Shown: positions 3,094-62,785, counted from the first letter of the stretch. The stretch: DNA of 64,000 nt from Bacteroidales bacterium (GCA_015060865.1 SUXS01000012.1:41313-105312); one strand, 5' to 3'. The notes: generated from the sequence alone by a model not told the origin. Translations and numbers: made by a program.

Positions 3094-3183
3094 TGGCGTG
3101 TGATTATCTATTTGTTCTCAGGGCTGACGCACTGGAAATATCTACAAAGATTATCATTTACTATCATAGAATCAGTTGTTTAT

Positions 3184-3233
3184 CCACGCGAATCTCGCAA
3201 ATCTCGCAGACCGACGCTAATGCTCCTCGTCGG
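3184..3233. repeat. solo 9-mer-repeat arm (CCACGCGAA TCTCGCAAA TCTCGCAGA) plus short hairpin, related to the 40-41 kb palindromic elements
   Basis: Direct match of the TCNCGCGAA x3 pattern to the left arms at 40273, 40672 and 41280. No inverted partner nearby. Followed by hairpin ccgacg..cgtcgg. Confidence 0.6.
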
Positions 3234-3599
3234 CCTCCTAACCTAAGAGGAGAATTTAATGGATGTGGACAACATCAATATTATTGCTAAAATAATTTTT
3301 CTTTCGTTATGGGTATTCCGAATTTTATATTTACCTTTGCGTCATGTGGAGTGCGCTCCACAGATTTTTGATTTGTTGGTAGAAGCGTAGTGCTCTCTTG
3401 TTAATTGGAAACCTAGGAAATTTTCAATAGAACAAACAAGGAAGGCGTGGCGGTTCTGCGCGTATATCGCGTGGGCTGTTATTGTTACATCTGTTCGCAA
3501 AGGTTTTCCTAGGACCTCCAATTAAGGCGTGGCATATCAGCTCCACGCTTCTTTATTGTAAATGCTCTTTGGGAGTTGGAGGGCACAATGATTTTTACA

Positions 3600-4668: not shown

Positions 4669-4750
4669 CCGTGAAGCGGGCCGAAAAGGAGAACATACAG
4701 TGTGGTGTCATCCTTACGTAGGGGAGGATCCCGCGCTGGGACTTGCACGA

Positions 4751-4790
4751 GCTTTGCGAGATTTTTCGCTGCGCTCAGAATGGCACGAGA
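4751..4790. repeat. copy of the CATTyyGAGC..AGCGA.AAATCTCGCAAA motif also present in the parB-parA spacer
   Basis: The reverse complement of 4751-4790 reads gccattctgagcgcagcgaaaaatctcgcaaag. Compare tcatttcgagcaaagcgagaaatctcgcaaac at 49482-49513. Confidence 0.5.
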
Positions 4791-4854
4791 CGTTTAGGAC
4801 ACCTACGATGGCATGACGTATCTTTATATCGCCCCACGCTTATTGTAGCCAACA

Positions 4855-4888: not shown

Positions 4889-4960
<72 letters not shown>

Positions 4961-11293: not shown

Positions 11294-12904
11294 ATGAGAA
11301 AAATTTTTACACTTTTCTTCATGTCGATGTTCCTGGTGATAGGAACAGCCATGGCGCAGGATGATAGCGCCGACTCACTTAAACTCACGTTTCTAAATCC
11401 TAAAGATGGTGCAATGGAAACTTCCGTCTACAATATCCGACTTCAGTTCAACAAGGACGTTACAGCCACCCTTCCCGAAGGCGGTATTGATGTCGTGAAC
11501 AACGATACCAAGGAGGTTGTCAAGATTACCCGCATCTACAAGGATGAATGGACACCTGCCAACACCGTGCTCTTCTATTTTGAGCAGAAGATGATGCCTG
11601 ACAAGGATGGAAAGGGCGAAGAACTGCAAGACCAGTATATTGATACTCCCGGCTCCTATAGCTATACCATCCCCGCCGGCTGCATCAAGAGTGTCGATGG
11701 TGAGGAGTTTGCTGAGCACACCTTCACATTCAGTGTTGTAGGTACTTTTGGTGTAGAGAGCTATTCACCTCAAACGACCAGTAAGTTGGAGAAGATACAG
11801 ATAACCTTTACTGAAGAGGTTACCGAGGTGATATTTCCCAATAGCGGTTTGCCCGTTGTAGACGGTTATTGGACTCCCGTATCGTGGGTTAAGAATGATG
11901 TTGTAATCAGTGAAGACAAGAAGACTGTTACTTTTGAACTCGAGGAACCTATCACCGCAGAAGGTACGTATGGCATCGATCTTTATCAGGGAACGTTTGT
12001 TGGTCCCAAGGGTATCAATACTTACAGTTCGCTCATGTTCAATGTTATCGACAGTAATCCTTCTTTCGTAACCAACTTCCAGGAGGGCGAGCGGGTAAAG
12101 GAAATCGGCAATCTTGAAATTACTTTCAGGAATGTTAGCGAGGTGAAGCTCGTAGAGGGTGCAGAGCCTGTTACCGCATATCTCCCCGGTGATGGCGAAG
12201 CTACAGGTAAGGCTGCTTTGGCCAATAATAGGATTACCGTTACCTTTGATCAGCAGTTTACCGAAGAGGGTGTCTATACCTTTGTAATTCCTGCTGGTAT
12301 GTTCACTATGGATGGCGTGCCCAACGAACCTCGTGAGATCAATATCACTCTTTTCACCTTCTCTATCATTCCGCTTGAGGTTGATAGCGTAATTCCCGCA
12401 ATGGGCACAGTAGATAAGCTCGACCGCATCATTGTCGTATACAACCAGGATGTAACCCTCTCTATGGATGAGAACTGGCAGCAGATCTCACGCGAGATTG
12501 CCCTTACTTGTGGTGATAAGGTATATACGCTGACCTATAACTCCATGTCGAACCTTAGCAACAAGATTGAGTATCTTGTTAATGCTCAGTGGACAGGTTA
12601 TGAGTACGAGTCAACACCTATCACAGAAGCAGGAACCTATACTTTGAATCTTGCTGATATTATTGTAGACCACGCAGTAGAGGATTATATTGATGAGTGG
12701 GGTTATCCCAACAAGATGTGGCACTCAAAGGGCAAGTCTTGCGAGGGTACCTACACTTGGACCATCAGTGGCGACAACGCTATCAAGGTTGTAGCTCCTG
12801 AGACTGGTGAGCAGGTTATCTACGACCTTCTTGGCCGTCGCATCGAGAAGATTGTTGGTGATGGTATCTATATCGTCAATGGCAAGAAAGTTGTGATTAA
12901 GTGA
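11294..12904 (+). CDS. secreted Ig-like-repeat protein with T9SS C-terminal sorting domain
   Basis: Signal peptide and repeated beta-rich modules. The C-terminus VIYDLLGRRIEKIVGDGIYIVNGKKVVIK is typical of Por/T9SS CTDs. Confidence 0.65.
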   Translation: MRKIFTLFFMSMFLVIGTAMAQDDSADSLKLTFLNPKDGAMETSVYNIRLQFNKDVTATLPEGGIDVVNNDTKEVVKITRIYKDEWTPANTVLFYFEQKMMPDKDGKGEELQDQYIDTPGSYSYTIPAGCIKSVDGEEFAEHTFTFSVVGTFGVESYSPQTTSKLEKIQITFTEEVTEVIFPNSGLPVVDGYWTPVSWVKNDVVISEDKKTVTFELEEPITAEGTYGIDLYQGTFVGPKGINTYSSLMFNVIDSNPSFVTNFQEGERVKEIGNLEITFRNVSEVKLVEGAEPVTAYLPGDGEATGKAALANNRITVTFDQQFTEEGVYTFVIPAGMFTMDGVPNEPREINITLFTFSIIPLEVDSVIPAMGTVDKLDRIIVVYNQDVTLSMDENWQQISREIALTCGDKVYTLTYNSMSNLSNKIEYLVNAQWTGYEYESTPITEAGTYTLNLADIIVDHAVEDYIDEWGYPNKMWHSKGKSCEGTYTWTISGDNAIKVVAPETGEQVIYDLLGRRIEKIVGDGIYIVNGKKVVIK

Positions 12905-13023
12905 GAGCAGAAGACTGCTTGTAGGCTTATGCCGAACGTGAACAACTAAAACGCAGTTAAAGTTGTGATTAAGTGAGAGCAGAAGACTGCTTGTAGGCTT
13001 ATGCCGAACGTGAACAACTAAAA
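12887..13023. repeat. 72-bp-period tandem duplication of the gene 3' end and its downstream sequence
   Basis: The 65 nt at 12887-12951 are repeated exactly at 12959-13023. A third degenerate copy of the last codons plus stop (aaaaagattgttaagtag) follows at about 13031-13048. Confidence 0.85.
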
Positions 13024-22408: not shown

Positions 22409-24823
22409 TTATGGTTCTATAATCAATCTATCATCTTCTAGTAATGGGGCGCTGAAGGTGAGCGTCACGGGTGCATCGCCATTGACTTGCACGTAGGCTA
22501 CGAGGTAGCCCTGGTAGGCGCGGCGCTGGCGTGCCTTGGGGTGGCTCATGTCGCTGTTGTCGGAGTTCTCGAGGCCCAGCAGGCGGGCAGGTCCCTCGAC
22601 CTGGCAAGAGATCATGTTGTCGGCCAGCTTCACGATGGTGCCCTGCTCATCGAGCACCTCCACGAGCACTTGTGCGGTGCCTCCTGCAGCCGACACCTCG
22701 GGCTCGAGCAGTGTGGCACGAAGCTGGTAGGGGCGATCGCTGGTGGTGATAGCATAGGTGGCCTGCAGGTTGCCCTCAGCATCGAAGCCCTCGGCGGTGA
22801 GGGTGCCGGGGCGGTACTCTACGTCCCAATGTATCATGCCGCTGTTGTCGTCGTAGGGGCGCATCTCGCCAATGACCTCGCCATTGAGCTTGAGCTGTGC
22901 CTTGGCGGTGTTGGTGTAGCATACCACGCGCACACGCTGTCCGTCGCGGTAGTTCCAGGTGTCGCCGGCATCGATGGAGAGCTGGTTGCCCCAGCGCCCA
23001 CGGCCTGTGCGGTAGGTGCCGATATAGATCATGGGCTTGTCGCTCCAGTGGGCCTCGCGGAACTTGCCGCGTCCCTTGGGGTAGTTGGCAAAGTTGAGCA
23101 GACCGGTGTGGAGGCCGCGTGAGGGCCATGCGCCTGACTCGCCGAGGTAGTCGGTGCCCGTCCAGATGAACTGGCCGAAGATGTGTTCCTTGTCGCGCAC
23201 GGCTTTCCAGGCACCGAAGTCGCTGCGGGTCTCGCTGCCGTAGATGATGCGCTCGGGGTATTTCTTATGGTCGGTGTCGTAGCGGTCCTCGGTGTAGTTG
23301 TAGCCTACCACGTCGACAGCTTCGGGATACTCGGTCTCGTTGCTCATGACCACACCTGCCAAGGCTCCCGTGACGGGACGTGAGGAGTCGATGGCGCGGA
23401 TGCAGGCTGCCAGGCGCTTGGCAATCTTGCCTATACGCTCGGCATGGGGACGCTCGGGGTCGTAACCGCCAAACATGGGCTGGCTGATGCTGCTGCCGTC
23501 GAGCACGGGGTGTGAGTAGGGGTCGTTGGGGTAGTCTACCTCATTGCCTACGCTCCAGAGGAACACGCTGGGGTGGTTGCGGTCGCGGCGCACGATGTCG
23601 GTGATGTCGCGCTCTATCCACTCTTCGAAGAAGTCGGCCGTGCCCTCAAAGCCGGGCTCGCCCTTGTTCCAGCCCTTTATCCACTTGCGCTTGGGGAACT
23701 CCCACTCGTCGCTGCCCTCGTCCATGATGAGCAGACCCAGCTCGTCGCACAGGTCATACACGATGGGGGCTTGCGGATTGTGGCTCATGCGGATGGCATT
23801 GGCTCCCATGGCCTTGAGCGACTCGAGGCGGCGGCGCCATACCTCGGGAGGCACTACGGCACCCAGCACACCGGCATCGTGGTGGAGGCATACGCCCTTG
23901 ACTTTCATGTTCTGTCCGTTGAGGGCAAAACCCTTGTCGGCACTGAAGTCGAGGGTGCGCAAGCCGGCACGGATCTCGGTATGGTCTATCACCTTACCGT
24001 CGGCAAGGAGCTCCACCTGCAGGGTGTAGAGGTAGGGGTCGTCGAGGTTCCAGCGGTGAGGGTTCTTTAATTGACAATTCACAATTGACAATTGACAATT
24101 GGTGGTGCTGGCTGCCACGCTGGCACTCTTGGTGGCAGAGGCTACCTTCTTGCCATCGGCATCGAGCATCGTGATGCGTGCCTGTACCTTCTGTGCCTGC
24201 GTGGTGTGGTTGTCTACAGCCACGTCGACCTCGATGGTGGCACTGCGGTCGGTAAGCTTGCTGGCGCGGTAGGCCACGCCCCACTGCGAGAGGTGCACGT
24301 CGGGGGCGCTGATGAGGTAGACGTCGCGGTAGATGCCCGAACCGGTGTACCAGCGCGAGTCGGCATAGCGGCTATGGTCGACGCGTACGGCAATGACATT
24401 GTCGCCGCCCTTGTTGAGGTAGGGGGTGAGGTCATACATGAACGATACGTATCCGTTGGGGCGGTGTCCCAGGTGGTGGCCGTTGAGGTATACATCGCTG
24501 CGGTTATACACGCCCTCGAAGTAGATGTAGTGGCGGGCGGCATCGTCGCCCACAGTAAAGGTCTTGCGATACCATCCTATGCCTCCGGGCAGGTAACCTG
24601 TGCAGCTGGCCAGCTCCTGCGAGGGAGCGCTCTCCACGCTCCAGTCGTGGGGCAGCTCCATGGGGCGCCAGCGGCTGTCGTCGTAGTCGGGCTTGCTGGC
24701 TGCACTGTCATCGCGGAGGATAAAGCGCCACCCAGTGTTGAACTTTTCGGCTTGGCCAAACGATACTTGAGCCGAGGCACCGAGGCCTATGAGGCTGACG
24801 AGGAGAGTGAGTAGTGTTCTCAT
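22409..24823 (-). CDS. glycoside hydrolase family 2 (beta-galactosidase/glucuronidase-like)
   Basis: Signal peptide, DDSRWRPMELPHDW, NAIRMSHNPQ, SVGNEV. Confidence 0.8.
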   Translation of the reverse strand: MRTLLTLLVSLIGLGASAQVSFGQAEKFNTGWRFILRDDSAASKPDYDDSRWRPMELPHDWSVESAPSQELASCTGYLPGGIGWYRKTFTVGDDAARHYIYFEGVYNRSDVYLNGHHLGHRPNGYVSFMYDLTPYLNKGGDNVIAVRVDHSRYADSRWYTGSGIYRDVYLISAPDVHLSQWGVAYRASKLTDRSATIEVDVAVDNHTTQAQKVQARITMLDADGKKVASATKSASVAASTTNCQLSIVNCQLKNPHRWNLDDPYLYTLQVELLADGKVIDHTEIRAGLRTLDFSADKGFALNGQNMKVKGVCLHHDAGVLGAVVPPEVWRRRLESLKAMGANAIRMSHNPQAPIVYDLCDELGLLIMDEGSDEWEFPKRKWIKGWNKGEPGFEGTADFFEEWIERDITDIVRRDRNHPSVFLWSVGNEVDYPNDPYSHPVLDGSSISQPMFGGYDPERPHAERIGKIAKRLAACIRAIDSSRPVTGALAGVVMSNETEYPEAVDVVGYNYTEDRYDTDHKKYPERIIYGSETRSDFGAWKAVRDKEHIFGQFIWTGTDYLGESGAWPSRGLHTGLLNFANYPKGRGKFREAHWSDKPMIYIGTYRTGRGRWGNQLSIDAGDTWNYRDGQRVRVVCYTNTAKAQLKLNGEVIGEMRPYDDNSGMIHWDVEYRPGTLTAEGFDAEGNLQATYAITTSDRPYQLRATLLEPEVSAAGGTAQVLVEVLDEQGTIVKLADNMISCQVEGPARLLGLENSDNSDMSHPKARQRRAYQGYLVAYVQVNGDAPVTLTFSAPLLEDDRLIIEP
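24069..24101. repeat. in-frame heptamer array (AATTGAC AATTCAC AATTGAC AATTGAC AATTG) inside the GH2 gene
   Basis: 33 AT-rich nt embedded in very GC-rich coding sequence. Translated on the minus strand as NCQLSIVNCQL. Confidence 0.85.
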
Positions 24824-27145: not shown

Positions 27146-27236
27146 CCTGAATTCTAAATTCTGAATTGTTCTTTTTAGTCTTTGACTTTGGCCCCTTCGG
27201 GCGTCGACCTTCGGCTCATCTTTCAACTTTCATCTT
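27146..27236. repeat. spacer element with heptamer arrays (CCTGAAT TCTAAAT TCTGAAT / CATCTTT CAACTTT CATCTT)
   Basis: Fills the spacer between the RSH start (27134) and the mltD-like stop (27230). Centre is ggccccttcgggcgtcgaccttcggc. Confidence 0.6.
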
Positions 27237-28624
27237 GGATAAATCTTCAGTCTCTTTCCTGCCACGATGCGGCTGGTGCGGAGGCCGTTCCATCGCTTGA
27301 GTTCGTTTACTGTCACGCGGTAGCGGCGTGCAATGGTCGAGAGGGTCTCTCCACTGCGTATCTTGTGGTAGATGAATCCGCTGTTGGTGGCTTGGTTTTT
27401 CAGAGTCTTCACCTTCTCCTCGGAGAAGTATTTCTCGCGGTCGTAGTTGTATATCGAGTCGCCCGAGAGGATGAAGGTGCGTATCTTGTCTTCGGGGAGG
27501 CGCAGCGCTCCGGGCAGGAACTTGCCCGGGATGACGTCTTCGCGGTACTGCGGGTTGAGGCCACGCAGTGTCTCCATGTCGATATCGCATACGGCTGCTA
27601 TCTGATCGAAGTGGAGCAGACGGTTTACCATGATGGTGTCGGTAGCTATAGGCAACTTGGGCTCCATGGGGCAGATGCCATGCTCGGCATGGTAGGTCAT
27701 GATGTAGGTGGCTGCAATGAAGGCAGGCACATAGCCGCGCGTCTCACGGGGCAAGTAGTAGTAGATGTCCCAAAAATTGGTCTTTCCGCCCGAGCGGTAG
27801 ATGGCCTTGTTCACGTTGCCCGAGCCGCAGTTGTAGGCTGCTATGGCCAGGCTCCAGTCACCGAAGCGGTCATAGAGGTCGCGCAGGTGCTTGGCTGCTG
27901 CCCAAGTGGCCTTCACGGGGTCGCGGCGGTCATCGACGAGGCTATTTTGCTTCAACCCGTAGAGCTTGCCTGTGCTGTACATAAACTGCCATAGGCCGGT
28001 AGCTCCAGCGCGAGATACGGCCACGGGGTTGAGGGCCGATTCGATTACCGGCAGGTACTTCAGCTCGTTGGGCACGCCATGCACGTCGAGTGCCTGCTCT
28101 ATGATGGGCTCGTAGTACTGCATCATACCCAGCATGTAAGATACCTGATGGCGCAGCTTCGTGGCGTAGCGGTCAATGCTGCTGCGCACGGGCTGATTGT
28201 ATACCATCTGCACCAGGCAGGGCAGGTTGGCCAGTCGCTCGGTGTATACCGTGTCGCTGAATGTGGGGTTGGTGGCTGTTGCCGTGCATGTGGTGTCCAC
28301 CATGAGGTAGGTCTGCGCATACCAACTGTTGAGTAGGCTATCGAGTTCGCCCGACATGCTCTCAATCACCACCAGCGAGTCGTCCTTGATGGTGGTCCAC
28401 TCCTCGGGGATGGGCTCGCGCTCCACTACGGGTAGTTCGGCTCTTGTCGTCTCCACGGCCTCTTCGGCGATGGTGTCCTGAGGGGCTACGGCTATATTTT
28501 CCACTTGTGGAGCCTGTGTCTCCACCGCTTTCTTCACTCCTCTGATGGGGAGTATTTTCTCGGAGCATCCGCATAGCACCACCAGTGCCATCAATGCCAT
28601 GTATATCGTCTTTTTCATTGTCAT
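27230..28624 (-). CDS. MltD-like lytic transglycosylase lipoprotein with C-terminal LysM
   Basis: Lipobox ALVVLCGC, SLT motif ESALNPVAVSRAGATGLWQFM, LysM YHKIRSGETLSTIARRYRVTVNELKRWNGL. Confidence 0.8.
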   Translation of the reverse strand: MTMKKTIYMALMALVVLCGCSEKILPIRGVKKAVETQAPQVENIAVAPQDTIAEEAVETTRAELPVVEREPIPEEWTTIKDDSLVVIESMSGELDSLLNSWYAQTYLMVDTTCTATATNPTFSDTVYTERLANLPCLVQMVYNQPVRSSIDRYATKLRHQVSYMLGMMQYYEPIIEQALDVHGVPNELKYLPVIESALNPVAVSRAGATGLWQFMYSTGKLYGLKQNSLVDDRRDPVKATWAAAKHLRDLYDRFGDWSLAIAAYNCGSGNVNKAIYRSGGKTNFWDIYYYLPRETRGYVPAFIAATYIMTYHAEHGICPMEPKLPIATDTIMVNRLLHFDQIAAVCDIDMETLRGLNPQYREDVIPGKFLPGALRLPEDKIRTFILSGDSIYNYDREKYFSEEKVKTLKNQATNSGFIYHKIRSGETLSTIARRYRVTVNELKRWNGLRTSRIVAGKRLKIYPR

Positions 28625-40121: not shown

Positions 40122-40272
40122 AGTATATTTTCCGTAATGACAAATATATTTTACATTTTATCGCGCAAACTTTATATTTTTTCTCTTCCGAATAAGTGAA
40201 ATGGATAAGAGATGCAATATGATTTCTTCCGATAAAGACATCTTATTCTTTCTCTCTTTTGACATGTTTTCC

Positions 40273-40391
40273 TCACGCGAATCTCGCGAATCACGCGAAA
40301 ACATACATCGCTATCGCTTGTATGTGGCCATCCGGATGGCAAACGCGAGTGAAACAATGCGTTTTTCGCGTGATTCGCGAGATTCGCGTGA
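40273..40391. repeat. palindromic element PAL1: perfect 29-bp inverted arms of three 9-mers enclosing three small hairpins
   Basis: tcacgcgaa tctcgcgaa tcacgcgaa aa at 40273-40301 is the exact reverse complement of 40363-40391. The interior holds cataca..tgtatg, the perfect palindrome GCCATCCGGATGGC (40327-40340), and aacgc..gcgtt. Confidence 0.9.
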
Positions 40392-40506
40392 AACATAAAC
40401 AGCGTGAAACTCAAATGTTTTCATAATGTATCTTCTTAGAGCGGACAAGCAGAACACTTTCAGTCGATGGTACGGAAAGTTCTGCGCCGCTTCTCTAATT
40501 CTTCAA

Positions 40507-40586
40507 ATATCCACGGATATTTACTTACGTATCCATGGATATTTCATCACGTATCCGTGGATATTTCATTACGTATCCACGGTTAC
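40507..40586. repeat. array of four TATCC-RY-GGATA palindromes with exact 22-bp phasing
   Basis: Dyad centres at 40513/14, 40535/36, 40557/58 and 40579/80 (atatccacggatat, gtatccatggatat, gtatccgtggatat, gtatccacggttac). Confidence 0.85.
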
Positions 40587-40671
40587 GCAAGTTTTTCTAT
40601 ACTGAAAACTTGCTTTTCGGGCAAATATTTCGTAACTTTACGGAGTAAACAGCGAAACTATTCGATAAGGC

Positions 40672-40808
40672 TCACGCGAATCTCGCAAATCACGCAAAGA
40701 GCACGCGCATTCGCTTGTGCTTGCCATCCGGCGCGAACACTCGGCGGAATCGCCGACAAACGCGAGCGAAGCGATGCGTTCTTCGTGAGATTCGTGAGAT
40801 TTGTGTGA
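40672..40808. repeat. palindromic element PAL2 (9-mer arms, GCCATCCGG core)
   Basis: Arms 40672-40700 and 40780-40808 pair with 22 Watson-Crick pairs, 4 G-U pairs and 3 mismatches when read as plus-strand RNA. Confidence 0.85.
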
Positions 40809-40868
40809 GGCAACAAAAAGATAAGCTTTTGCGTGAAACAAAAAAGAATTACATAAAACCAGAATACG

Positions 40869-41255
40869 ATGAAAGCAAAGGATCCACTATCATACAAGAT
40901 TATCGGTTGTGCGATGGAGGTGTACAACACGTTAGGGCCAGGGCTGCTGGAAGCCGCTTACGAGAAAGCTCTGATCCACGAATTGGAACTTAACGGATTA
41001 TCCGTAGCCTCGCAGGTGCCAGTGGAGATGAATTATAAAGGGGTGAACTTGGGAGAAGGTTTGCGGCTGGACCTGCTCGTGGAGGATTCCATCATCATAG
41101 AGCTAAAGTCCGTAGAGGAACTGAAGCCTGTACACTACAAGCAGTTGCTCACGTACCTCAAACTGATGGACAAACGTATAGGATTGCTCATCAATTTCAA
41201 CGTTTACGATTTCCGTGAGGGGATTAAGCGGGTTGTCAACGAATTCAAGGACTGA
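40869..41255 (+). CDS. GxxExxY protein (TIGR04256-like, PD-(D/E)xK superfamily)
   Basis: YKIIGCAMEVYNTLGPGLLEAAYEKALIHEL (G-LL-E-AA-Y) and DLLVEDSIIIELKSV. Confidence 0.8.
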   Translation: MKAKDPLSYKIIGCAMEVYNTLGPGLLEAAYEKALIHELELNGLSVASQVPVEMNYKGVNLGEGLRLDLLVEDSIIIELKSVEELKPVHYKQLLTYLKLMDKRIGLLINFNVYDFREGIKRVVNEFKD

Positions 41256-41279
41256 TATGCCGCTTGCATAACGTATTCC

Positions 41280-41418
41280 TCACGCGAATCTCGCGAATCT
41301 CGCAAAGAGCACGCGCATTCGCTTGTGCTTGCCATCCGGCGAGAACACACTCGGCGGAATCGCCGACAAACGCGAGCGCAGCGATGCGTTCTTCGTGAGA
41401 TTCGCGAGATTCGCGTGA
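41280..41418. repeat. palindromic element PAL3, direct repeat of PAL2
   Basis: Differs from PAL2 by 7 substitutions and one 2-nt indel. Arms pair with 27 Watson-Crick pairs, 1 G-U and 1 mismatch. Confidence 0.85.
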
Positions 41419-41474
41419 GACAAAAAGTAAGGAATAAGCTTTTGCGTGAAAAAGAATTATTAAACTAAGATATT

Positions 41475-47596: not shown

Positions 47597-48442
47597 TTAG
47601 AAGCTGAAGCTACACTGCAGTCCGTAGGACTGGGTGTTGCGGGGCGTGGCGTGGCGCTGATGGTCGATGATGCTGGGGCGTACCTGTACACTGAGATCCT
47701 CAGATATGTCAAAATTGGAAAGTTCAGCATCGACATAGGCATCGATAACAGAGATGAGATATACACCGATAAAGCAGAAGATGCTGAGGTCGCGCTGTCG
47801 GCGGTAGTTATCCTTACGATTCTTGAATACACGTTTGAGGTAATCCTTGTTAGCCTCGATGTTGTAGCGGGGTGGAAGGAAATCCTCATAGCTAGCGGTA
47901 CCGGGATCGTCATCCATGATGTCGAGGTAGGCTTGTGAGTAGTCACTGTACATTTGGTTGTTCCAGTTGAGGGCGTAGGCGCAGCCGAGAAATCCGCCGT
48001 ATACGATGGGTAGCTTCCAGTATTTGTGGTTATATATCTGTCCGCCTCCGGGGAACACGATGCCGGCCCAAGTAGCCTTGCTCGGATCAGGGGTAAAGGT
48101 GGCAAGTTTTTGTGCACGTTGCTCACGTCGGGTAGGGGTTTTCGCGGCTTTCGTGGTGTCGGAGTTCTCTGAGTCCTCGGCGGGTATGCCCAACTCGGCT
48201 TTTGCGGCTCGGTGGAGCGAATCACTGAGGACTGAAATCAGATGTTGTTTGTCAAGTGTGATACTTATAGTTTCTTTCTTTGAGGAATCGTTGGATGATG
48301 CAGCTTTGTGTTGAGATATGCCTCTTCTTTCGGTGTGAGACTCGGCAATGCTGTCTGTCAAAGACGGTCTTGCCTGTGTCGCTATCGGGAGCATCACAAG
48401 CAAGACGGTTAGTGATAGAAGTATTGACCTCAGCTGTTTCAT
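47597..48442 (-). CDS. DUF5683-like membrane protein downstream of parB
   Basis: Signal/TM and the segment WAGIVFPGGGQIYNHKYWKLPIVYGGFLGCAYALNWN. 2-nt gap after parB. Confidence 0.65.
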   Translation of the reverse strand: MKQLRSILLSLTVLLVMLPIATQARPSLTDSIAESHTERRGISQHKAASSNDSSKKETISITLDKQHLISVLSDSLHRAAKAELGIPAEDSENSDTTKAAKTPTRREQRAQKLATFTPDPSKATWAGIVFPGGGQIYNHKYWKLPIVYGGFLGCAYALNWNNQMYSDYSQAYLDIMDDDPGTASYEDFLPPRYNIEANKDYLKRVFKNRKDNYRRQRDLSIFCFIGVYLISVIDAYVDAELSNFDISEDLSVQVRPSIIDHQRHATPRNTQSYGLQCSFSF

Positions 48443-48444
48443 TG

Positions 48445-49323
48445 CTATGCTTTCAGTTTGTCCAATAAGGCGATGATGCGTTCAAGTTCTTGCTCATTTG
48501 CAAAGTTGATGGTAATCTTCCCTTTTCCTTTGGTGTTGCACGTGAGTTGTATGTCTGTTTGGAAGAATGCTGCAAGGTGTTTTTTTAATATAGCAAAGTC
48601 TTCAGTAAGTGCTTTGTTGGCTGCTTTCTTTGGTGTGTGGCCTTTTGTACTGTTATTTTCCTTAATAAGTTCCTCTACCTTGCGTACAGAATATCCGTTG
48701 GCTTGTATCTCTTGAAATAACTTAATTTGTTCCACCGGGTTGTCGAGGGCGAGGAGTGCACGGGCGTGACCCATGTCGAGCTCGCGGTTTTTGAGTGCCA
48801 CCTGTATCTGTGCGGGGAGCTTGAGCAGGCGCAGGTAGTTGGCGATGGTGGTGCGCTTCTTTCCTACGCGTTCGCTCAGCTTCTCCTGGGTGAGGCTGTA
48901 CTCCTCGAGCAGGTGCTGGTAGGCGAGGGCTATCTCCATGGAGTTGAGGTCTTCGCGCTGTATGTTCTCGATGAGCGCCATCTCCATCACGTTCTCGTCA
49001 TCGGCAGTGCGTATGTAGGCGGGTACGGTGGTGAGTCCGGCGAGCTGCGATGCGCGGAAGCGGCGTTCACCGGCAATGATCTGGTAGGTGCCGTCGTCCA
49101 TCTTGCGCAGGGTGATGGGCTGTATGATGCCAATCTCCTTGATGGAGTCGGCAAGCTCTTGCAGTGCCTCGGGGTCGAACTCGCGGCGCGGCTGGTTGGG
49201 GTTGGGCTTGATCTTGCTGATGGCTATCTCGCTGATGGAGGATGAGCCTTCGGTCTTCACCGTATCGGTGGAGATGAGGGCGTCGAGGCCACGGCCAAGG
49301 GAGGGGTATTTCTTTGTTGCCAT
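48445..49323 (-). CDS. parB: chromosome partitioning protein ParB
   Basis: IIQPITLRK..YQIIAGERRFRAS and HTH LTQEKLSERVGKKRTTIANYLRLL. Confidence 0.93.
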   Translation of the reverse strand: MATKKYPSLGRGLDALISTDTVKTEGSSSISEIAISKIKPNPNQPRREFDPEALQELADSIKEIGIIQPITLRKMDDGTYQIIAGERRFRASQLAGLTTVPAYIRTADDENVMEMALIENIQREDLNSMEIALAYQHLLEEYSLTQEKLSERVGKKRTTIANYLRLLKLPAQIQVALKNRELDMGHARALLALDNPVEQIKLFQEIQANGYSVRKVEELIKENNSTKGHTPKKAANKALTEDFAILKKHLAAFFQTDIQLTCNTKGKGKITINFANEQELERIIALLDKLKA

Positions 49324-49333
49324 ATCTTTTTTT

Positions 49334-49675
49334 AGTTGAAAGTTGAAAGATGAAAGTTGAAAGTAGGCTTTGCGATGTGTTCCCTGCCGGATGGTAATAA
49401 TCTTTCTTCTTTCACTTTTCAGCGTTTCATTTTTTTTAAGTTATTTTGGTAATAATATAGATGTTGTCCAAAACGTCCCGTGTCATTTCGAGCAAAGCGA
49501 GAAATCTCGCAAACGTCTCATGCTAAGTTCCAGCGAGGGATACCTCGGCGCTTCGCTTTGTCGGCATGACACCAACGCTGAGATTTTAGTGTTAGTGGAC
49601 AACTGCTATATTATCTCCGTTATTTTTCTGAGTTGGAAGTAGGAAAACTTTCATCTTTCATCTTTCCACTTTCAA
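49334..49675. repeat. nested palindromic element filling the parB-parA spacer
   Basis: Outer heptamer arms agttgaaagttgaaagatgaaagttgaaagt (49334-49364) and aactttcatctttcatctttccactttcaa (49647-49675). Inner inverted repeats atatagatgttgtcca / tggacaactgctatat and gtgtcatttcgagcaaagcga / tcgctttgtcggcatgacac. tgccggatgg core at 49385-49394. Confidence 0.8.
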
Positions 49676-50433
49676 TTTTTTTTAATGATTTCTTGCGCCA
49701 AAGTCAGGTAGTTCTGTGCCCCCTTAGACTCGGCATCGTAGAGGATGGCGGGGATGCCGTGGCTGGGGGCTTCGCTGAGGCGTACGTTGCGCTGGATGAC
49801 GGTGTCGAACACCAGCTCCTGGAAGTGGCGGCGTACCTCGTCGAGCACCTGATTGCTCAGACGCAGGCGCGAGTCATACATCGTGAGCAGGAAACCCTCG
49901 ATGCTGAGGCCGGGGTTGAGCTTCGACTTGATAATCTTGATGGTATTGAGCAGCTTGCTGATACCCTCCAAGGCGAAGTACTCGCACTGGACGGGGATAA
50001 TAACCGAGTCAGCAGCAGTAAGGGCATTGACGGTGATGAGTCCTAACGAGGGCGAGCAGTCAATGAGGATGTAATCGTACTCTTCATAGAAAGGCTTGAG
50101 CATGCTTTTTAGAATATTCTCACGATTGTCGAGATTTAGCATCTCGATTTCAGCTCCTACTAGGTCGATATGTGAGGCTATCACTTCCAGACCCTCTATG
50201 TCAGTGGTATAGATAGCTTCTTTGGGGTCGCGCCCGTCAATAAGACATTCGTATATAGAGCAATCTACATTGCGTATGTCCACGCCTAATCCCGATGAGG
50301 CATTGGCCTGTGGGTCAGCATCTATCAGTAATACTTTTTTTTCTAATGTAGCCAATGACGCAGCAAGGTTAATGGCTGTAGTAGTCTTACCTACACCACC
50401 TTTCTGATTGGCTAATGCTATAACTTTTCCCAT
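49672..50433 (-). CDS. parA: chromosome partitioning ATPase ParA/Soj
   Basis: Deviant Walker A NQKGGVGKTTT. 253 aa. Confidence 0.93.
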   Translation of the reverse strand: MGKVIALANQKGGVGKTTTAINLAASLATLEKKVLLIDADPQANASSGLGVDIRNVDCSIYECLIDGRDPKEAIYTTDIEGLEVIASHIDLVGAEIEMLNLDNRENILKSMLKPFYEEYDYILIDCSPSLGLITVNALTAADSVIIPVQCEYFALEGISKLLNTIKIIKSKLNPGLSIEGFLLTMYDSRLRLSNQVLDEVRRHFQELVFDTVIQRNVRLSEAPSHGIPAILYDAESKGAQNYLTLAQEIIKKN

Positions 50434-50510
50434 TGTGATATTTTTTTCGGGTGCGAAATAAATAATAATCTATCTAATTCGTACGAAAAAATCCCTAAAC
50501 TTTCTAAAAT

Positions 50511-50563
50511 TGTGGATAACTCCTTTGATTTGTTAATAACTATCCACGCGTGTGGATAGTTAT
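50511..50563. promoter_or_regulatory. DnaA-box-like cluster upstream of parA
   Basis: TGTGGATAA (9/9 to the reverse complement of the TTATCCACA consensus) at 50511-50519. A 28-bp near-perfect palindrome ataactatccacgc|gtgtggatagttat at 50536-50563 holds two more box-like 9-mers. An AT-rich tract at 50445-50510 is adjacent. Confidence 0.4.
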
Positions 50564-50614
50564 GATGTTTAACTACGGAGTATAGTCTTTTTAGGAGTAG
50601 GCGTTTTGAATGGA

Positions 50615-51493
50615 TTAGCTGAGGGTGAAATACTTTTCGCCTATCATGATCCCATCACAGAAGATGTGTACTGCATATTCGCCGGCTTCAAGAAATTCCT
50701 CTACATCCCAATACATAATGACAACCTGTTCTTCACCATTGTACTCAATGGTCTTTTTGATACTGTATTCCAACTGTGTATTTTCGTAGGGAAAGGTGTT
50801 TGATGGGTTCTTTGTGAGTACACTACCATCAGGCTTGGTGATACGGACGTAGATTTTTTTCTCTCCAGTAGCCGCAGTTATATTCTTCACAATAGTGAAG
50901 TCGATAGCTAGCTTTATGACACTTTTAACTTTATCAGTTTCCTTGCCACGTTTGTTGCGTGAACTGATATGTATGTTTGTTGCGTCAAGTTGTGAGGCGA
51001 GGGTTACCTTTTCATTAAGGTTCTTGGTCTCTTCCTGCAGCACCTCAACCTGCTTGGTAACTGCCTGATACTGCGTGCGCACCCGCTTGTTTTCCTTACT
51101 GAGTTTCTCGTTTGCCTGGTTAAGCGAGTCGATTTGCACTACATAACTGCGCATTACTGCACGCACGGTCTTCAGCTCTCTCTTCAGACGAGCTATCTCA
51201 GCAGCATTGCTGGCCTTGGTAGCGCGTAGCTCTTCGAGTAGGCGTTGTGTGCGCAGCTTTTCACGCTCGAGCTGCGCTACGAGGCTGTCGTTACTGATGA
51301 GTATCTGCATCTCGTCATATTGGGTGGCGAAGGTGCTGTACTCATTCTCCATTTCCATTTTCTCCAGTTCAAAGAGCTGCACCATCTCCTCATTGGCCTT
51401 GTTGGCTTGACTGAGGCGGATGCCGAGGAAAGCCAAGGCACCTGCCAAAGCTATGCCTACAATGATAAGTATGCTTAGGATTTTCTTGTTCAT
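50615..51493 (-). CDS. membrane-anchored coiled-coil protein
   Basis: N-terminal TM ILSILIIVGIALAGALAFLGI, long heptad-rich region, beta-rich C-terminus. Confidence 0.6.
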   Translation of the reverse strand: MNKKILSILIIVGIALAGALAFLGIRLSQANKANEEMVQLFELEKMEMENEYSTFATQYDEMQILISNDSLVAQLEREKLRTQRLLEELRATKASNAAEIARLKRELKTVRAVMRSYVVQIDSLNQANEKLSKENKRVRTQYQAVTKQVEVLQEETKNLNEKVTLASQLDATNIHISSRNKRGKETDKVKSVIKLAIDFTIVKNITAATGEKKIYVRITKPDGSVLTKNPSNTFPYENTQLEYSIKKTIEYNGEEQVVIMYWDVEEFLEAGEYAVHIFCDGIMIGEKYFTLS

Positions 51494-51500
51494 CTTTTGT

Positions 51501-54248
51501 TTACTTCAATTTTGACAGACTTTCCTTAATCGCAGCAATCTTGCTCTCGGCATCGGCCTGTTTCTTGCGCTCGGCGGCGACAACGGCCTCGGGTGCATTG
51601 CTTACAAAGCGTTCGTTGGAAAGTTTCTTCATCACTGAGTTGAGGAATCCTTCGAGATAGGTGAGCTCGGCCTGTAGCTTGGCAACTTCGGCCTCTACAT
51701 CGATGAGGCTGCCCAAAGGTACGGCATACTCGGTGGTGCCTACCATGAATGATGAGGTACCCTCGCTCTTGGCTTCTACTACATTGATAGCTTCGAGGTT
51801 GGCCATCTTCTCTATAATTGCATTGTAGGTAGCTACAGCGTGATTGCCTACCACTTCAAGGCTGAGCGCCTCCTTCTGCGCGATGTTCTTCTGCAAGCGG
51901 ATGGTGCGCACGCCACTGATGATGCTCTTTACGGTCTCGATGTCGGCTATGAGCTGCTCGTCGTACTTGTCGGCAAAAATCTTTACGCTTTGTGTCATGA
52001 TGCTCTCGCCGGGCTTGCGTTCCTCGATAGCTTGCCACAACTCTTCGGTGATGAAGGGCATGAAGGGGTGGAGCAGGCGCAGCAGGGCGTCGAAGTAGTG
52101 AAGTGTAGCATCGTAGGTCTGCTTGTCGATAGCACAACCGTAGGCGGGCTTCACAATCTCAAGATACCAGCTGGAGAACTCATCCCAGAACAGGCGGTAT
52201 ATAGCCATCAGTGCCTCGCTCAAGCGGTACTTGCTCATCAGGTCGTCCACCTCGAGGGCTGTCTTGGTGAGCATAGCATCGAACCACTGGCAACCCAAGC
52301 GGGCAGCCTCGGGCTGAGCGATGGTGGCATCTACATTCCAACCCTTCACGAGGCGGAAGGCGTTCCAAATCTTGTTGTTGAAGTTACGGCCCTGCTCGCA
52401 GAGTGCATCATCGAAGAGGATGTCGTTGCCGGCAGGAGCGCAGAGCATCATACCCATACGCACGCCATCGGCACCATACTGGGCGATGAGGTCGAGCGGG
52501 TCGGGCGAGTTGCCGAGGCTCTTCGACATCTTGCGTCCCAGCTTGTCGCGTACGATACCGGTGAAGTATACATTCTTGAATGGCATGTCGCCCTTGTACT
52601 CGTAGCCTGCCATAATCATACGTGCTACCCAGAAGAAGATGATGTCCGGGCCGGTCACCAGGTCTGAGGTGGGGTAGTAGTAGTTGAGTTCGGCATTGTC
52701 GGGGTTGTTGATACCGTCAAACAGTGAGATGGGCCACAGCCATGATGAGAACCAAGTGTCGAGGGCATCCTCGTCCTGACGCAGCTCGGCAGCTGTGATA
52801 TTCTCGTATCCCTCTATCTTGCGGGCCAACTCAACGGCTTCGTCAATGCTCTCGGCTACTACGAAGGTCTCTTCGCCACCCTCTGCTGTGGGCAGGAAGT
52901 AGGCCGGTATGCGGTGTCCCCACCAGAGTTGGCGGCTGATACACCAGTCTTGTATGTTTTCCAACCAATTGTTGTAGGTGGTCTTGTACTTGGCGGGGTA
53001 GAACTTGAGTTCGTCGTTCATTACGGGCGGCAGGGCGATGTCGGCAAAGTGCTGCATGCGGAGGAACCACTGCATGCAGAGACGCGGCTCAACGGCCGTG
53101 TCGGCATTGCGCTCCGAGTAGCCCACCTTGTTGTCGTAGTCTTCCACCTTCTCGAGCAGACCAGCAGCTTCGAGGTCCTTGGCGATGAGGCGGCGCACCT
53201 CCATGCGGTCCTTGCCTACATAGAGTCCGGCTTCCTCGCTCAGTGTGCCGTCGGGGTTGAAGATGTCGATAGTCTCCAGATTGTGCTTCTTGCCCAGCAT
53301 GTAGTCATTGGTGTCGTGAGCAGGAGTCACCTTCAAGCATCCTGTACCGAACTCGATGTCTACGTAGCGGTCCTCGATGACGGGAATCTCACGACCTACG
53401 AGCGGTACGATGACCTTCTGTCCCTTGAGCCAAGTGTTCTTGGGGTCCTTGGGGTTGATACACATGGCCGTGTCGCCCATGATGGTCTCGGGGCGAGTGG
53501 TAGCCACTACGGCATAGTAGCCTTTCTCGTCTTTGTGTATAACGTTGTCGAGTTGAAAGTTGAAAGATGAAAGTGGAGAGTGGCCGTCCGGATGGCAACT
53601 TTCATCTGTCATCTTTCCACTTTCCACTTGTCCTACCACATAATACTTCAAGTAATATAGCTTGCTCTTCTCCTCCTTGTAGATTACCTCTTCGTTGGAG
53701 AGGGCAGTCTGTGCCTTGGGGTCCCAGTTTACCATGCGCAGACCGCGGTAGATAAGGCCCTTGTTGTAGAGGTCTACGAATACCTTGATGACGCTTGCGC
53801 TACGCTTCTCGTCCATGGTGAAGGCCGTACGGTCCCAGTCGCATGATGCACCCAGCTTACGCAGTTGCTTGAGGATGATGCCGCCGTGCTCGTCGGTCCA
53901 CTCCCAAGCATGCTTGAGGAACTCCTCACGGGTGAGGTCGCTCTTCTTGATGCCCTGTTCGGCGAGCTTCTTCACCACCTTGGCTTCGGTAGCGATAGAG
54001 GCATGGTCGGTACCCGGTACCCAGCAAGCATTCTTGCCCAGCATACGTGCGCGGCGCACGAGAATATCCTGAATGGTATTGTTGAGCATGTGGCCCATGT
54101 GGAGCACACCCGTCACGTTGGGTGGGGGGATGACCACTGTATAGGGCTCGCGTCCGTCGGGCTCAGAGTGGAAGAGTTTGTTGTCTAACCAATATTGATA
54201 CCATTTACCCTCAACATCCGTGGGGTTGTATTTGCTTGCTAGTTCCAT
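51501..54248 (-). CDS. valS: valine--tRNA ligase
   Basis: HIGH-type motif [19 protein letters not shown]-terminal coiled coil. Carries an in-frame palindromic insert. Confidence 0.95.
53551..53628. repeat. heptamer-arm palindromic element inside the valS reading frame
   Basis: agttgaaagttgaaagatgaaagtggagagtgg - ccgtccggatgg - caactttcatctgtcatctttccactttccact. Same arm sequence as the parB-parA element and same GCCGTCCGGATGGC core as PAL1. Confidence 0.85.
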
Positions 54249-62650: not shown

Positions 62651-62785
62651 GTCAACAGACAACAGTCAACGGTCAACGGACTTGCCTTCCGGGATGTTGC
62701 TGTTTGGTTATTGATTTCTTTTCACTTCTATGGTCAATAGCCACAAGTCGCGTCAGGATGGGACTGTAGAGCATTGACCGTTGAC
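62651..62785. repeat. spacer element with GTCAACR heptamer array and inverted partner
   Basis: gtcaaca gacaaca gtcaacg gtcaacg g (62651-62679), core gccttccgggatg (62684-62696), inverted ttgaccgttgac (62774-62785). Confidence 0.65.

Follow-up and report, generated by a model that had tools for sequence, protein, structure and literature searches.

Nested palindromes between parA and parB in a Bacteroidales genome: a probable stack of mobile repeats on a 3-nt gene junction

The genes parA and parB are normally tightly linked in one operon. In the 64,000-nucleotide stretch of DNA from a Bacteroidales bacterium analysed here (hereafter, the window), they are separated by a gap of 348 nt (49324-49671) filled with nested inverted repeats. 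This raises the question of what the insert is, how it came to lie within a core operon, and whether it acts on the transcript that would carry it. An initial annotation had described the gap as a single composite element capable of terminating, attenuating or processing the parAB transcript. Comparison with related loci favours a different origin, which is considered probable: selfish DNA stacked in at least two steps on an originally 3-nt junction, a hairpin cassette having arrived first and an IS1595-type MITE later.

Structure of the parA-parB spacer

The ends of both ORFs agree with the initial annotation, which had parA stopping at 49672 and parB starting at 49323, and the nested architecture it described (outer arms, a left sub-hairpin with its T8 run, and inner pairs) was recovered by an inverted-repeat search (Table 1). 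The parA stop codon lies inside the right outer arm, and TRF detected a period of 7 in the spacer, with 4.4 and 3.9 copies. A 27-nt arm pattern gave three matches against none in 100 shuffles, and the sense RNA of the spacer folds at -97.2 kcal/mol, compared with -65.3 +/- 4.8 kcal/mol for shuffled sequences (z = -6.63), so that chance is ruled out for both the arms and the fold.

Such repeats do break assemblies, and three related contigs (L130-L132; fetched loci are designated by L numbers) end in a heptamer array just upstream of parB, which brings in the suspicion of an assembly artefact, for example a chimeric join at the repeats. This is scarcely credible, because the 348-nt spacer is 100% identical in contigs of at least three independent metagenome samples (L001-L003), with 20 more places having largely the same gene neighbourhood; furthermore, a relative (L007) carries a consistent intermediate form. 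The nested parA-parB palindrome is confirmed as real.

Table 1. Features of the parA-parB junction and of a sister hairpin in valS, in window positions.
Feature	Position	Strand	Remarks
parA	49672..50433	-	253 aa; AAA_31/CbiA/ParA domains (Pfam); TGA stop (49672-49674) from the insert's first heptamer, TAA in insert-free relatives
parB	48445..49323	-	292 aa; ORF and Pfam (ParB_N, HTH_ParB, ParB_C)
A-rich leader just upstream of the parB ATG	49324..49333	-	sense AAAAAAAGAT
Unit A1, well-kept heptamer arm	49334..49366	.	(A/T)GTTGAA x4.4; long-range pairing with 49647-49675
Unit A1, centre	49367..49400	.	ACCATCCGGCAGGGAACACATCGC on the sense strand
Unit A1, decayed second arm, T8 and AA	49401..49439	.	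arm itself 49401-49429
Target-site duplication, left copy	49440..49447	.	GTTATTTT, 8 bp
MITE, IS1595-type family, 171 bp	49448..49618	.	terminal inverted repeats 49448-49470 (GGTAATAATATAGATGTTGTCCA) and 49596-49618
Target-site duplication, right copy	49619..49626	.	GTTATTTT, 8 bp
Unit A2, short decayed arm	49627..49646	.	tctgagttggaagtaggaaa
Unit A2, well-kept heptamer arm	49647..49675	.	CTTTCAT-type units; overlaps the parA stop; pairs with 49336-49364
Outer heptamer arms	49336-49364 / 49647-49675		29 nt, 93% complementary
Left sub-hairpin	49337-49366 / 49402-49433		71-85% complementary, via ctgccggatgg, then T8 at 49430-49437
Inner repeat pair	49452-49470 / 49596-49614		19 nt, 89%
Core repeat pairs	49480-49491 / 49561-49572 and 49493-49500 / 49553-49560		
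Sister heptamer hairpin in valS	53551..53629	-	centre GCCGTCCGGATGGC; in frame; encodes 27 aa

Probable order of insertion and the inner IS1595-type element

Relatives of the locus were sampled as contigs encoding ParB homologues of 84-100% identity, representing ten ParB clusters. In four of the ten (L005/L006, L136-L138, L139-L141 and L192/L193), parA and parB are 3 nt apart, the junction reading TAAcctATG in the context ...ATCATTAAAAAGAACTAAcctATG, and this compact form is taken as the presumptive ancestral state. The long insert pointed out in the initial annotation is thus derived, and the heptamer arrays of the window's spacer (at least three tandem 7-nt units) are absent from L005 and L136-L141. 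An intermediate form is found in L007-L009, whose 168-nt spacer comprises heptamer units only, is identical to the window's at 165 of 168 positions and supplies the parA stop as a TGA inside its first heptamer. The spacer of the window corresponds to this 168-nt type plus 179 nt at AAAATAAC, that is, the 171-bp element and a second 8-bp target; the single AAAATAAC of L007-L009, with no element, represents an empty site at the orthologous position. The notion of a single composite element was therefore abandoned in favour of at least two unrelated mobile repeats inserted successively, as indicated by the L007 intermediate and the target duplication of the MITE.

Other relatives carry quite different material at the same place. 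In L191, whose ParB is 84% identical, the gap measures 576 nt and holds three hairpin units together with a PF05635 gene (L191 925-1575). The L194 junction contains a 138-nt hairpin (L194 1363-1500) with arms of a different short repeat, made of CAGGAGTT-type units, in L130-L132 the assemblies break 35-38 nt upstream of parB, within a (TTCTCAA/TTTTCAA)n array (first 40 nt), and L133-L135 have an unrelated 79-nt spacer. Altogether, the junction is expanded in six of the ten ParB clusters sampled, in at least five kinds. Such variety fits opportunistic insertion where stop and start codons meet in A-rich sequence better than a conserved regulator, and it argues for tolerated selfish DNA over an evolved one.

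The inner 171-bp element is assigned to the MITEs of an IS1595-family insertion sequence. Metagenomes were scanned with a 20-nt pattern taken from the terminal repeat. Of the 49 loci retrieved, about 35 are family members; counting the window's own copy, there are 28 complete elements (27 in metagenomes) of 138-327 bp, plus one nested 595-bp case. The complete elements have in common 23-bp terminal inverted repeats, GGYAATAATATAGNWGTTGTCCA, and half of them (14/28) are flanked by a perfect 8/8 A/T-rich direct duplication, whereas control 8-mers displaced by 8 nt never matched at more than 4/8 positions. The window copy is flanked on both sides by GTTATTTT, and 8 bp is the length of the IS1595 target-site duplication known from ISfinder. 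In addition, a 2.5-kb element in L186 (1189-3714) is bounded by GGCAATAATATAGATGTTGTCCA and its inverse, which are the ends of the MITE, and has TAAAAATA, an 8-bp duplication free of mismatches, on either side. The 325-aa protein that it encodes contains DDE_Tnp_IS1595 (E = 1.1e-45) and Zn_ribbon_IS1595 domains, and the element is regarded as a putative autonomous member of the IS1595 family; alongside the transposase it carries two small ORFs as passengers, one of them matching DUF4160.

Like other IS1595-family MITEs, the window element is non-coding, has 23-bp ends identical to those of the transposase-encoding element, lies within an 8-bp A/T-rich target duplication and has many dispersed copies and an observed empty site. 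The copies are small and occur in different contexts, and the sole ORF across the window copy is not conserved. The family differs in its unusually mosaic interiors, which vary among copies as chains of small hairpin modules. In the window copy, the interior is itself palindromic (49480-49572), and its core module also stands alone at 4724-4801 (about 80% identity over 82 nt) and in L088. Taken by itself, the RNA of the MITE folds at -60.7 kcal/mol (z = -5.2). BLAST against plasmid and phage collections gave no match to the MITE, and the family was not found in the literature, reports on MITEs in Prevotella included (most subscription journals lay outside the coverage); it appears to be a new family of the known IS1595-type kind. 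Within the window, the free-standing core palindrome at 4724-4801 lies a short way downstream of a tRNA gene (4889-4960), and a decayed second member of the MITE family is visible at 3150-3300, where one terminal repeat is well preserved (3266-3298) and its partner, near 3160, has diverged.

The layering also bears on whether the spacer encodes a product of its own. A 90-aa ORF (49370..49642, + strand) spans the strongly structured region, which might suggest a small protein or a small RNA. However, this ORF crosses both the MITE and its target duplication and cannot exist in the MITE-less L007. For a small RNA, Rfam provided no match even at E <= 1; the spacer region searched at that threshold and the whole window searched at the gathering score returned only a chance snoRNA-like match and one tRNA. 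Visual inspection of the spacer revealed no promoter motif of the Bacteroidetes type, and the one weak sigma-70-like match, inside the terminal repeat of the MITE, comes from a model that is not meaningful for the Bacteroidetes sigma factor. A product encoded by the spacer is accordingly very unlikely.

The repeat-armed hairpin family and its possible gene-bearing relatives

The outer part of the spacer can be placed in a multi-copy hairpin family defined by short tandem-repeat arms and a GCCWTCCGG centre. In the window, GCCWTCCGGV has 6 matches at 5 sites, against 0.6 expected, and all of these sites (40327, 40723, 41331, 53587 and 62684) are centres of hairpins with tandem 7-mer or 9-mer arms. 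Unit A1 of the parAB spacer has a slightly decayed version of the centre, ACCATCCGGCAGGGAACAC, and its central segment shares homology with the centre of unit 3 in L191 and with those of the 9-mer-armed hairpins near 40.7 and 41.3 kb. Together with the dispersed MITE modules, these copies show that components of the spacer are present at other sites, which the initial annotation had itself proposed as the test for an element.

A sister copy lies within valS (ORF 51501..54248, minus strand), and its arms are identical to the parAB outer arms at 24/24 and 27/28 positions. When valS is aligned with the Thermus ValRS structure sequence (T. thermophilus, 1gax), the alignment breaks exactly at the hairpin, leaving a 34-aa insert; Prevotella-like ValRS differ from one another in the length of this loop. 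Inspection of the valS copy showed stop codons in its five other frames. Two further in-frame copies, both chance finds, occur in other Bacteroidaceae genomes, in an ilvD-like ORF (L095) and a mazG-like ORF (L088). All three are read in one common frame and give similar peptides, VESGKM.DES ... LSS.NFQLD. An exhaustive representative protein search with the 30-aa valS insert retrieved only giant repetitive proteins and no in-frame relatives, and joining the three insert peptides into one query for a protein word search gave 5 candidates, none of them scored. A strict regular-expression survey of coding versus intergenic hairpins in the fetched loci missed irregular in-frame copies and was confounded by read-through frames. 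Furthermore, about 70 chance matches are expected in the genome-wide heptamer scan (17 fixed bases, 596 Gb), so the taxonomic spread among its listed matches should not be over-read. For the heptamer hairpin, no clean target duplication or empty-site pair was seen, the one change observed being the replacement of about 7 nt (CTAACCT).

The occurrence of sister copies inside valS and beside unrelated genes also weighs on a possible role of the palindrome as DNA, either as a ParB-binding, centromere-like site or as a cruciform affecting replication or segregation. A long, near-perfect palindrome within a partition operon does invite such a reading. Nevertheless, the spacer has no match to parS (TGTTNCACGTGAAACA) within 3 mismatches, the window's best matches (3 mismatches) lie elsewhere and at chance frequency (4, against 1.8 expected), and close relatives have intact parAB without the insert. 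A function at the DNA level is thus highly doubtful.

The behaviour of the hairpins recalls the Rickettsia palindromic elements, which lie between genes and also in frame in housekeeping genes, where they contribute a short surface-loop peptide and keep one stop-free frame. The hairpin family is likewise both intergenic and in frame (valS, ilvD-like and mazG-like ORFs), a property of the sister copies and not of the parAB copy. The likeness is an analogy in behaviour. The host group here is the Bacteroidales; tandem 7- to 9-nt arms around a GCCWTCCGG centre are not the design of the Rickettsia elements, and the link to PF05635 and PD-(D/E)XK genes described below is no feature of them.

Heptameric tandem repeats have previously been reported to be in excess between bacterial genes, with no accepted mechanism (PMC4692102, PMC4679880). 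These repeats are often found directly upstream of start codons and are missing from the same spacers of close relatives (PMC4692102, PMC4679880); they break assemblies and sometimes form inverted pairs (PMC4679880, PMC4692102). Described families include STRR in cyanobacteria, TAACTGA in Beggiatoaceae, Cyanobacteria and Bacteroidetes, and GGGAATC in Xanthomonas (PMC4679880, PMC4692102). The parAB insert resembles the STRR and TAACTGA types in having 7-nt tandem units in an intergenic spacer from which relatives lack them. It differs in its unit, GAAAGNT, in the arrangement of the arrays as hairpin arms with a conserved centre, and in the presence of such arrays in coding sequence and around small genes as well, which those reports do not describe (PMC4679880, PMC4692102). 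In the literature searched, with most subscription journals outside the coverage, no description was found of GAAAG-type hairpins, of in-frame palindromic copies in Bacteroidetes, or of a link to PF05635 or PD-(D/E)XK genes. The hairpin family appears to be an undescribed form of known kinds, namely RPE-like, IVS-like and heptamer arrays.

Several further repeats were observed in the window. A repeat-armed hairpin at 62653-62720, with GTCAACR heptamers and the centre GCCTTCCGGG, lies between two minus-strand genes and is followed on the sense strand by A9 and a downstream start codon, a layout like that upstream of parB. At 24069-24101, 4.7 copies of AATTGAC (33 nt) lie within ORF 22409..24823 (-), a glycoside hydrolase of family 2; this array leaves the frame intact and showed no inverted partner. 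At 27216-27236, three heptamer units of the CTTTC type overlap the stop codon of an SLT/LysM gene (27230..28624, minus strand) and adjoin the module ggccccttcgggcgtcgacc, which is also found in L088 and, in closely similar form, in the MITE copies of L155 and L180. In addition, Tandem Repeats Finder detected a perfect tandem duplication at 12887-13023 (72-nt unit, 1.9 copies, 100% identity).

Some members of the hairpin family are associated with small genes. Unit 2 of L191, which lies upstream of the PF05635 gene, is 91% identical over 55 nt to the unit of the window and L007, and the match takes in 'caactaaaaaagaNATG', the A-rich leader and the ATG position; the 'arm, A-run, ATG' order of the parB leader is also found before the IVP gene in L191. 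A profile search identified five PF05635-like genes in the fetched loci. The four that could be checked on both sides (L191, L025, L045 and L063) are all bracketed by inverted tandem-heptamer arrays, the heptamer sequence differing by lineage, while the fifth (L094) is cut by the locus edge, with the downstream array alone visible. Similarly, in the window a PDDEXK_3 gene (PD-(D/E)XK, 'GxxExxY'-type; 40869-41255) is bracketed by two near-identical 9-mer-armed hairpins. The flank inverted-repeat scores of the four PF05635-like genes and the PD-(D/E)XK gene range from 13 to 21.5, whereas 2000 segments drawn at random from the same loci have their 99th percentile at 11.5. In the same part of the window, 40268-41420 contains three hairpins with tandem 9-mer arms (TCACGCGAA-type) and GCCATCCGG centres, and a 22-nt tandem repeat (x3.3; 40508-40579) lies inside ORF 40467..40808, which has no Pfam match.

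PF05635 genes are known from the intervening sequences of 23S rRNA, which are removed by RNase III. The loci of L191, L025, L045 and L063 resemble these in having a long inverted-repeat stem around a small four-helix-bundle gene, whereas the spacer of the window has no PF05635 ORF and lies in mRNA, not in 23S rRNA. To our knowledge, tandem-heptamer arms are not part of the published description of 23S rRNA intervening sequences. Given the small sample, the link of the hairpins to PF05635 and PD-(D/E)XK genes is a lead and not a settled association, and the parAB copy of the window looks like a gene-less remnant or relative of a PF05635-type cassette. More speculatively, and with rather less than even confidence, the repeat-armed hairpins may represent members without a gene in a class of mobile cassettes that is widespread but undescribed. 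Full members of this class would carry either a PF05635 gene (23S-IVS protein, Avd-like) or a PD-(D/E)XK 'GxxExxY' gene and would insert preferentially at operon stop/start junctions and now and then in frame within essential genes; on this reading, the spacer between parA and parB would be a decayed cassette in which a MITE was later trapped.

Proposed assembly of the insert and its possible effects on parAB

The sequence of events that best accounts for these observations would begin with a gene-less hairpin cassette, built of tandem GAAAG-type heptamer arms and an (A/G)CCATCCGGCAGGGAACAC centre, inserting at the stop/start junction. Its TGA would have replaced the TAA of parA, and an A-rich leader would have been left before the parB ATG. 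Subsequently, an IS1595-family transposase acting in trans would have put the 171-bp MITE into the A/T-rich linker between the hairpin units, duplicating GTTATTTT. The nested palindrome would have arisen because each element is itself palindromic and the best-kept arms of both units happen to pair.

Exchange between lineages has probably also shaped the region. In seven-taxon identity matrices comparing the window with L005, L007, L136, L139, L191 and L192, its parA proved to be a mosaic: over its first 450 nt, identity to every relative compared is about 78%, and over its last 310 nt, as over the first 300 nt of parB, it is 93-98%, insert-free relatives included. This pattern indicates that the junction region is exchanged between lineages and homogenised by recombination, which can explain why the hairpin is common to the window, L007 and L191 yet absent in closer relatives of L007. 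A single old insertion that recombination then spread could explain the three occurrences, as could repeated insertion specific to this site. A window-like donor of the parA 3' end and spacer of L007 had been suggested by three-taxon site patterns (Fisher p = 1e-11); this directional claim was withdrawn after the seven-taxon matrices, because the window parA is itself mosaic and reaches 93-98% even with insert-free relatives.

Once in place, the whole insert would be co-transcribed with parAB and fold into nested stem-loops. A role in terminating or attenuating the transcript, as put forward initially, found no support: a terminator scan of 48400-50700 returned 0 terminator-like sites, and it is A7 or A8 that follows the hairpins in the parAB sense orientation, with T-runs behind them on the antisense strand only, that of unit A1 included. 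As the sense strand has no U-tract behind the hairpins, we infer that the insert does not act as an intrinsic terminator. In the fold with flanks, the predicted outer stem links the parA stop to a position 10 nt ahead of the parB ATG. The close translational coupling that parA and parB have in relatives would be broken by the insert, but the outer stem may bring the parA stop within about 10 nt of the parB start, and a ribosome finishing parA would melt this stem and expose the parB start, so that some coupling may survive. The insert would be tolerated because it supplies both a stop codon and an A-rich restart leader.

Whether such a structure has evolved or been co-opted as a post-transcriptional regulator must also be weighed. 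REP/BIME sequences in E. coli operons and Correia elements in Neisseria uncouple neighbouring mRNA levels through RNase III cutting or an exonuclease block. The stems of the spacer, if cut by RNase III or blocking 3'-5' exonucleases, would similarly uncouple parA and parB mRNA and raise ParA relative to ParB. Like those elements, the insert consists of intercistronic palindromic repeats in a mosaic and could, by analogy, stabilise the upstream mRNA or be cut by RNase III, although it has no sequence similarity to them. No transposase gene, including the IS200/IS605-like RAYT type that is associated with REP elements, was noticed within the 64 kb. Consistent with a regulator are the very stable nested sense RNA with its 29-bp outer stem (-97 kcal/mol, z = -6.6), the predicted mean probability that the 20 nt preceding the parB ATG are unpaired (0.44 in the window and 0.33 in L007, compared with 0.81 in the insert-free L005), and the occurrence of related units around PF05635 genes, the family of the RNase III-excised rRNA intervening sequences. 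Furthermore, the heptamer module is 98% identical between lineages, with nearby coding DNA at 93-96%, which leaves room for some constraint. On the other hand, no hairpin is followed by a sense-strand U-tract or matches a terminator, close relatives do without any spacer, others have quite different inserts that fit opportunistic insertion, and the inner 171 bp are a plain MITE copy with a fresh target duplication. An evolved or co-opted regulator is consequently judged unlikely. A changed ParA:ParB ratio or altered transcript processing is a possible consequence of the insert, and RNase III processing of the spacer is plausible by analogy with rRNA intervening sequences and Correia elements. 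Stacked selfish DNA thus stays the preferred account, with the insert, we infer, a tolerated, near-neutral passenger.

These results suggest that a conspicuous structure in a core operon may be layered selfish DNA, and should not be read as a regulator from sequence alone. The naturally occurring 3-nt, 168-nt and 348-nt junctions provide a ready series on how much spacer structure the parAB operon tolerates. More widely, the locus has yielded a clean IS1595-type MITE family with mosaic interiors, as well as Bacteroidales repeat-armed hairpins that appear to act like Rickettsia palindromic elements and to bracket small IVS-protein and PD-(D/E)XK genes. If the proposed cassette class is real, it would explain a large part of the surplus of 7-nt tandem repeats between bacterial genes; a true link between hairpins and genes would, in addition, explain why these repeats sit just upstream of start codons and would make their origin testable.
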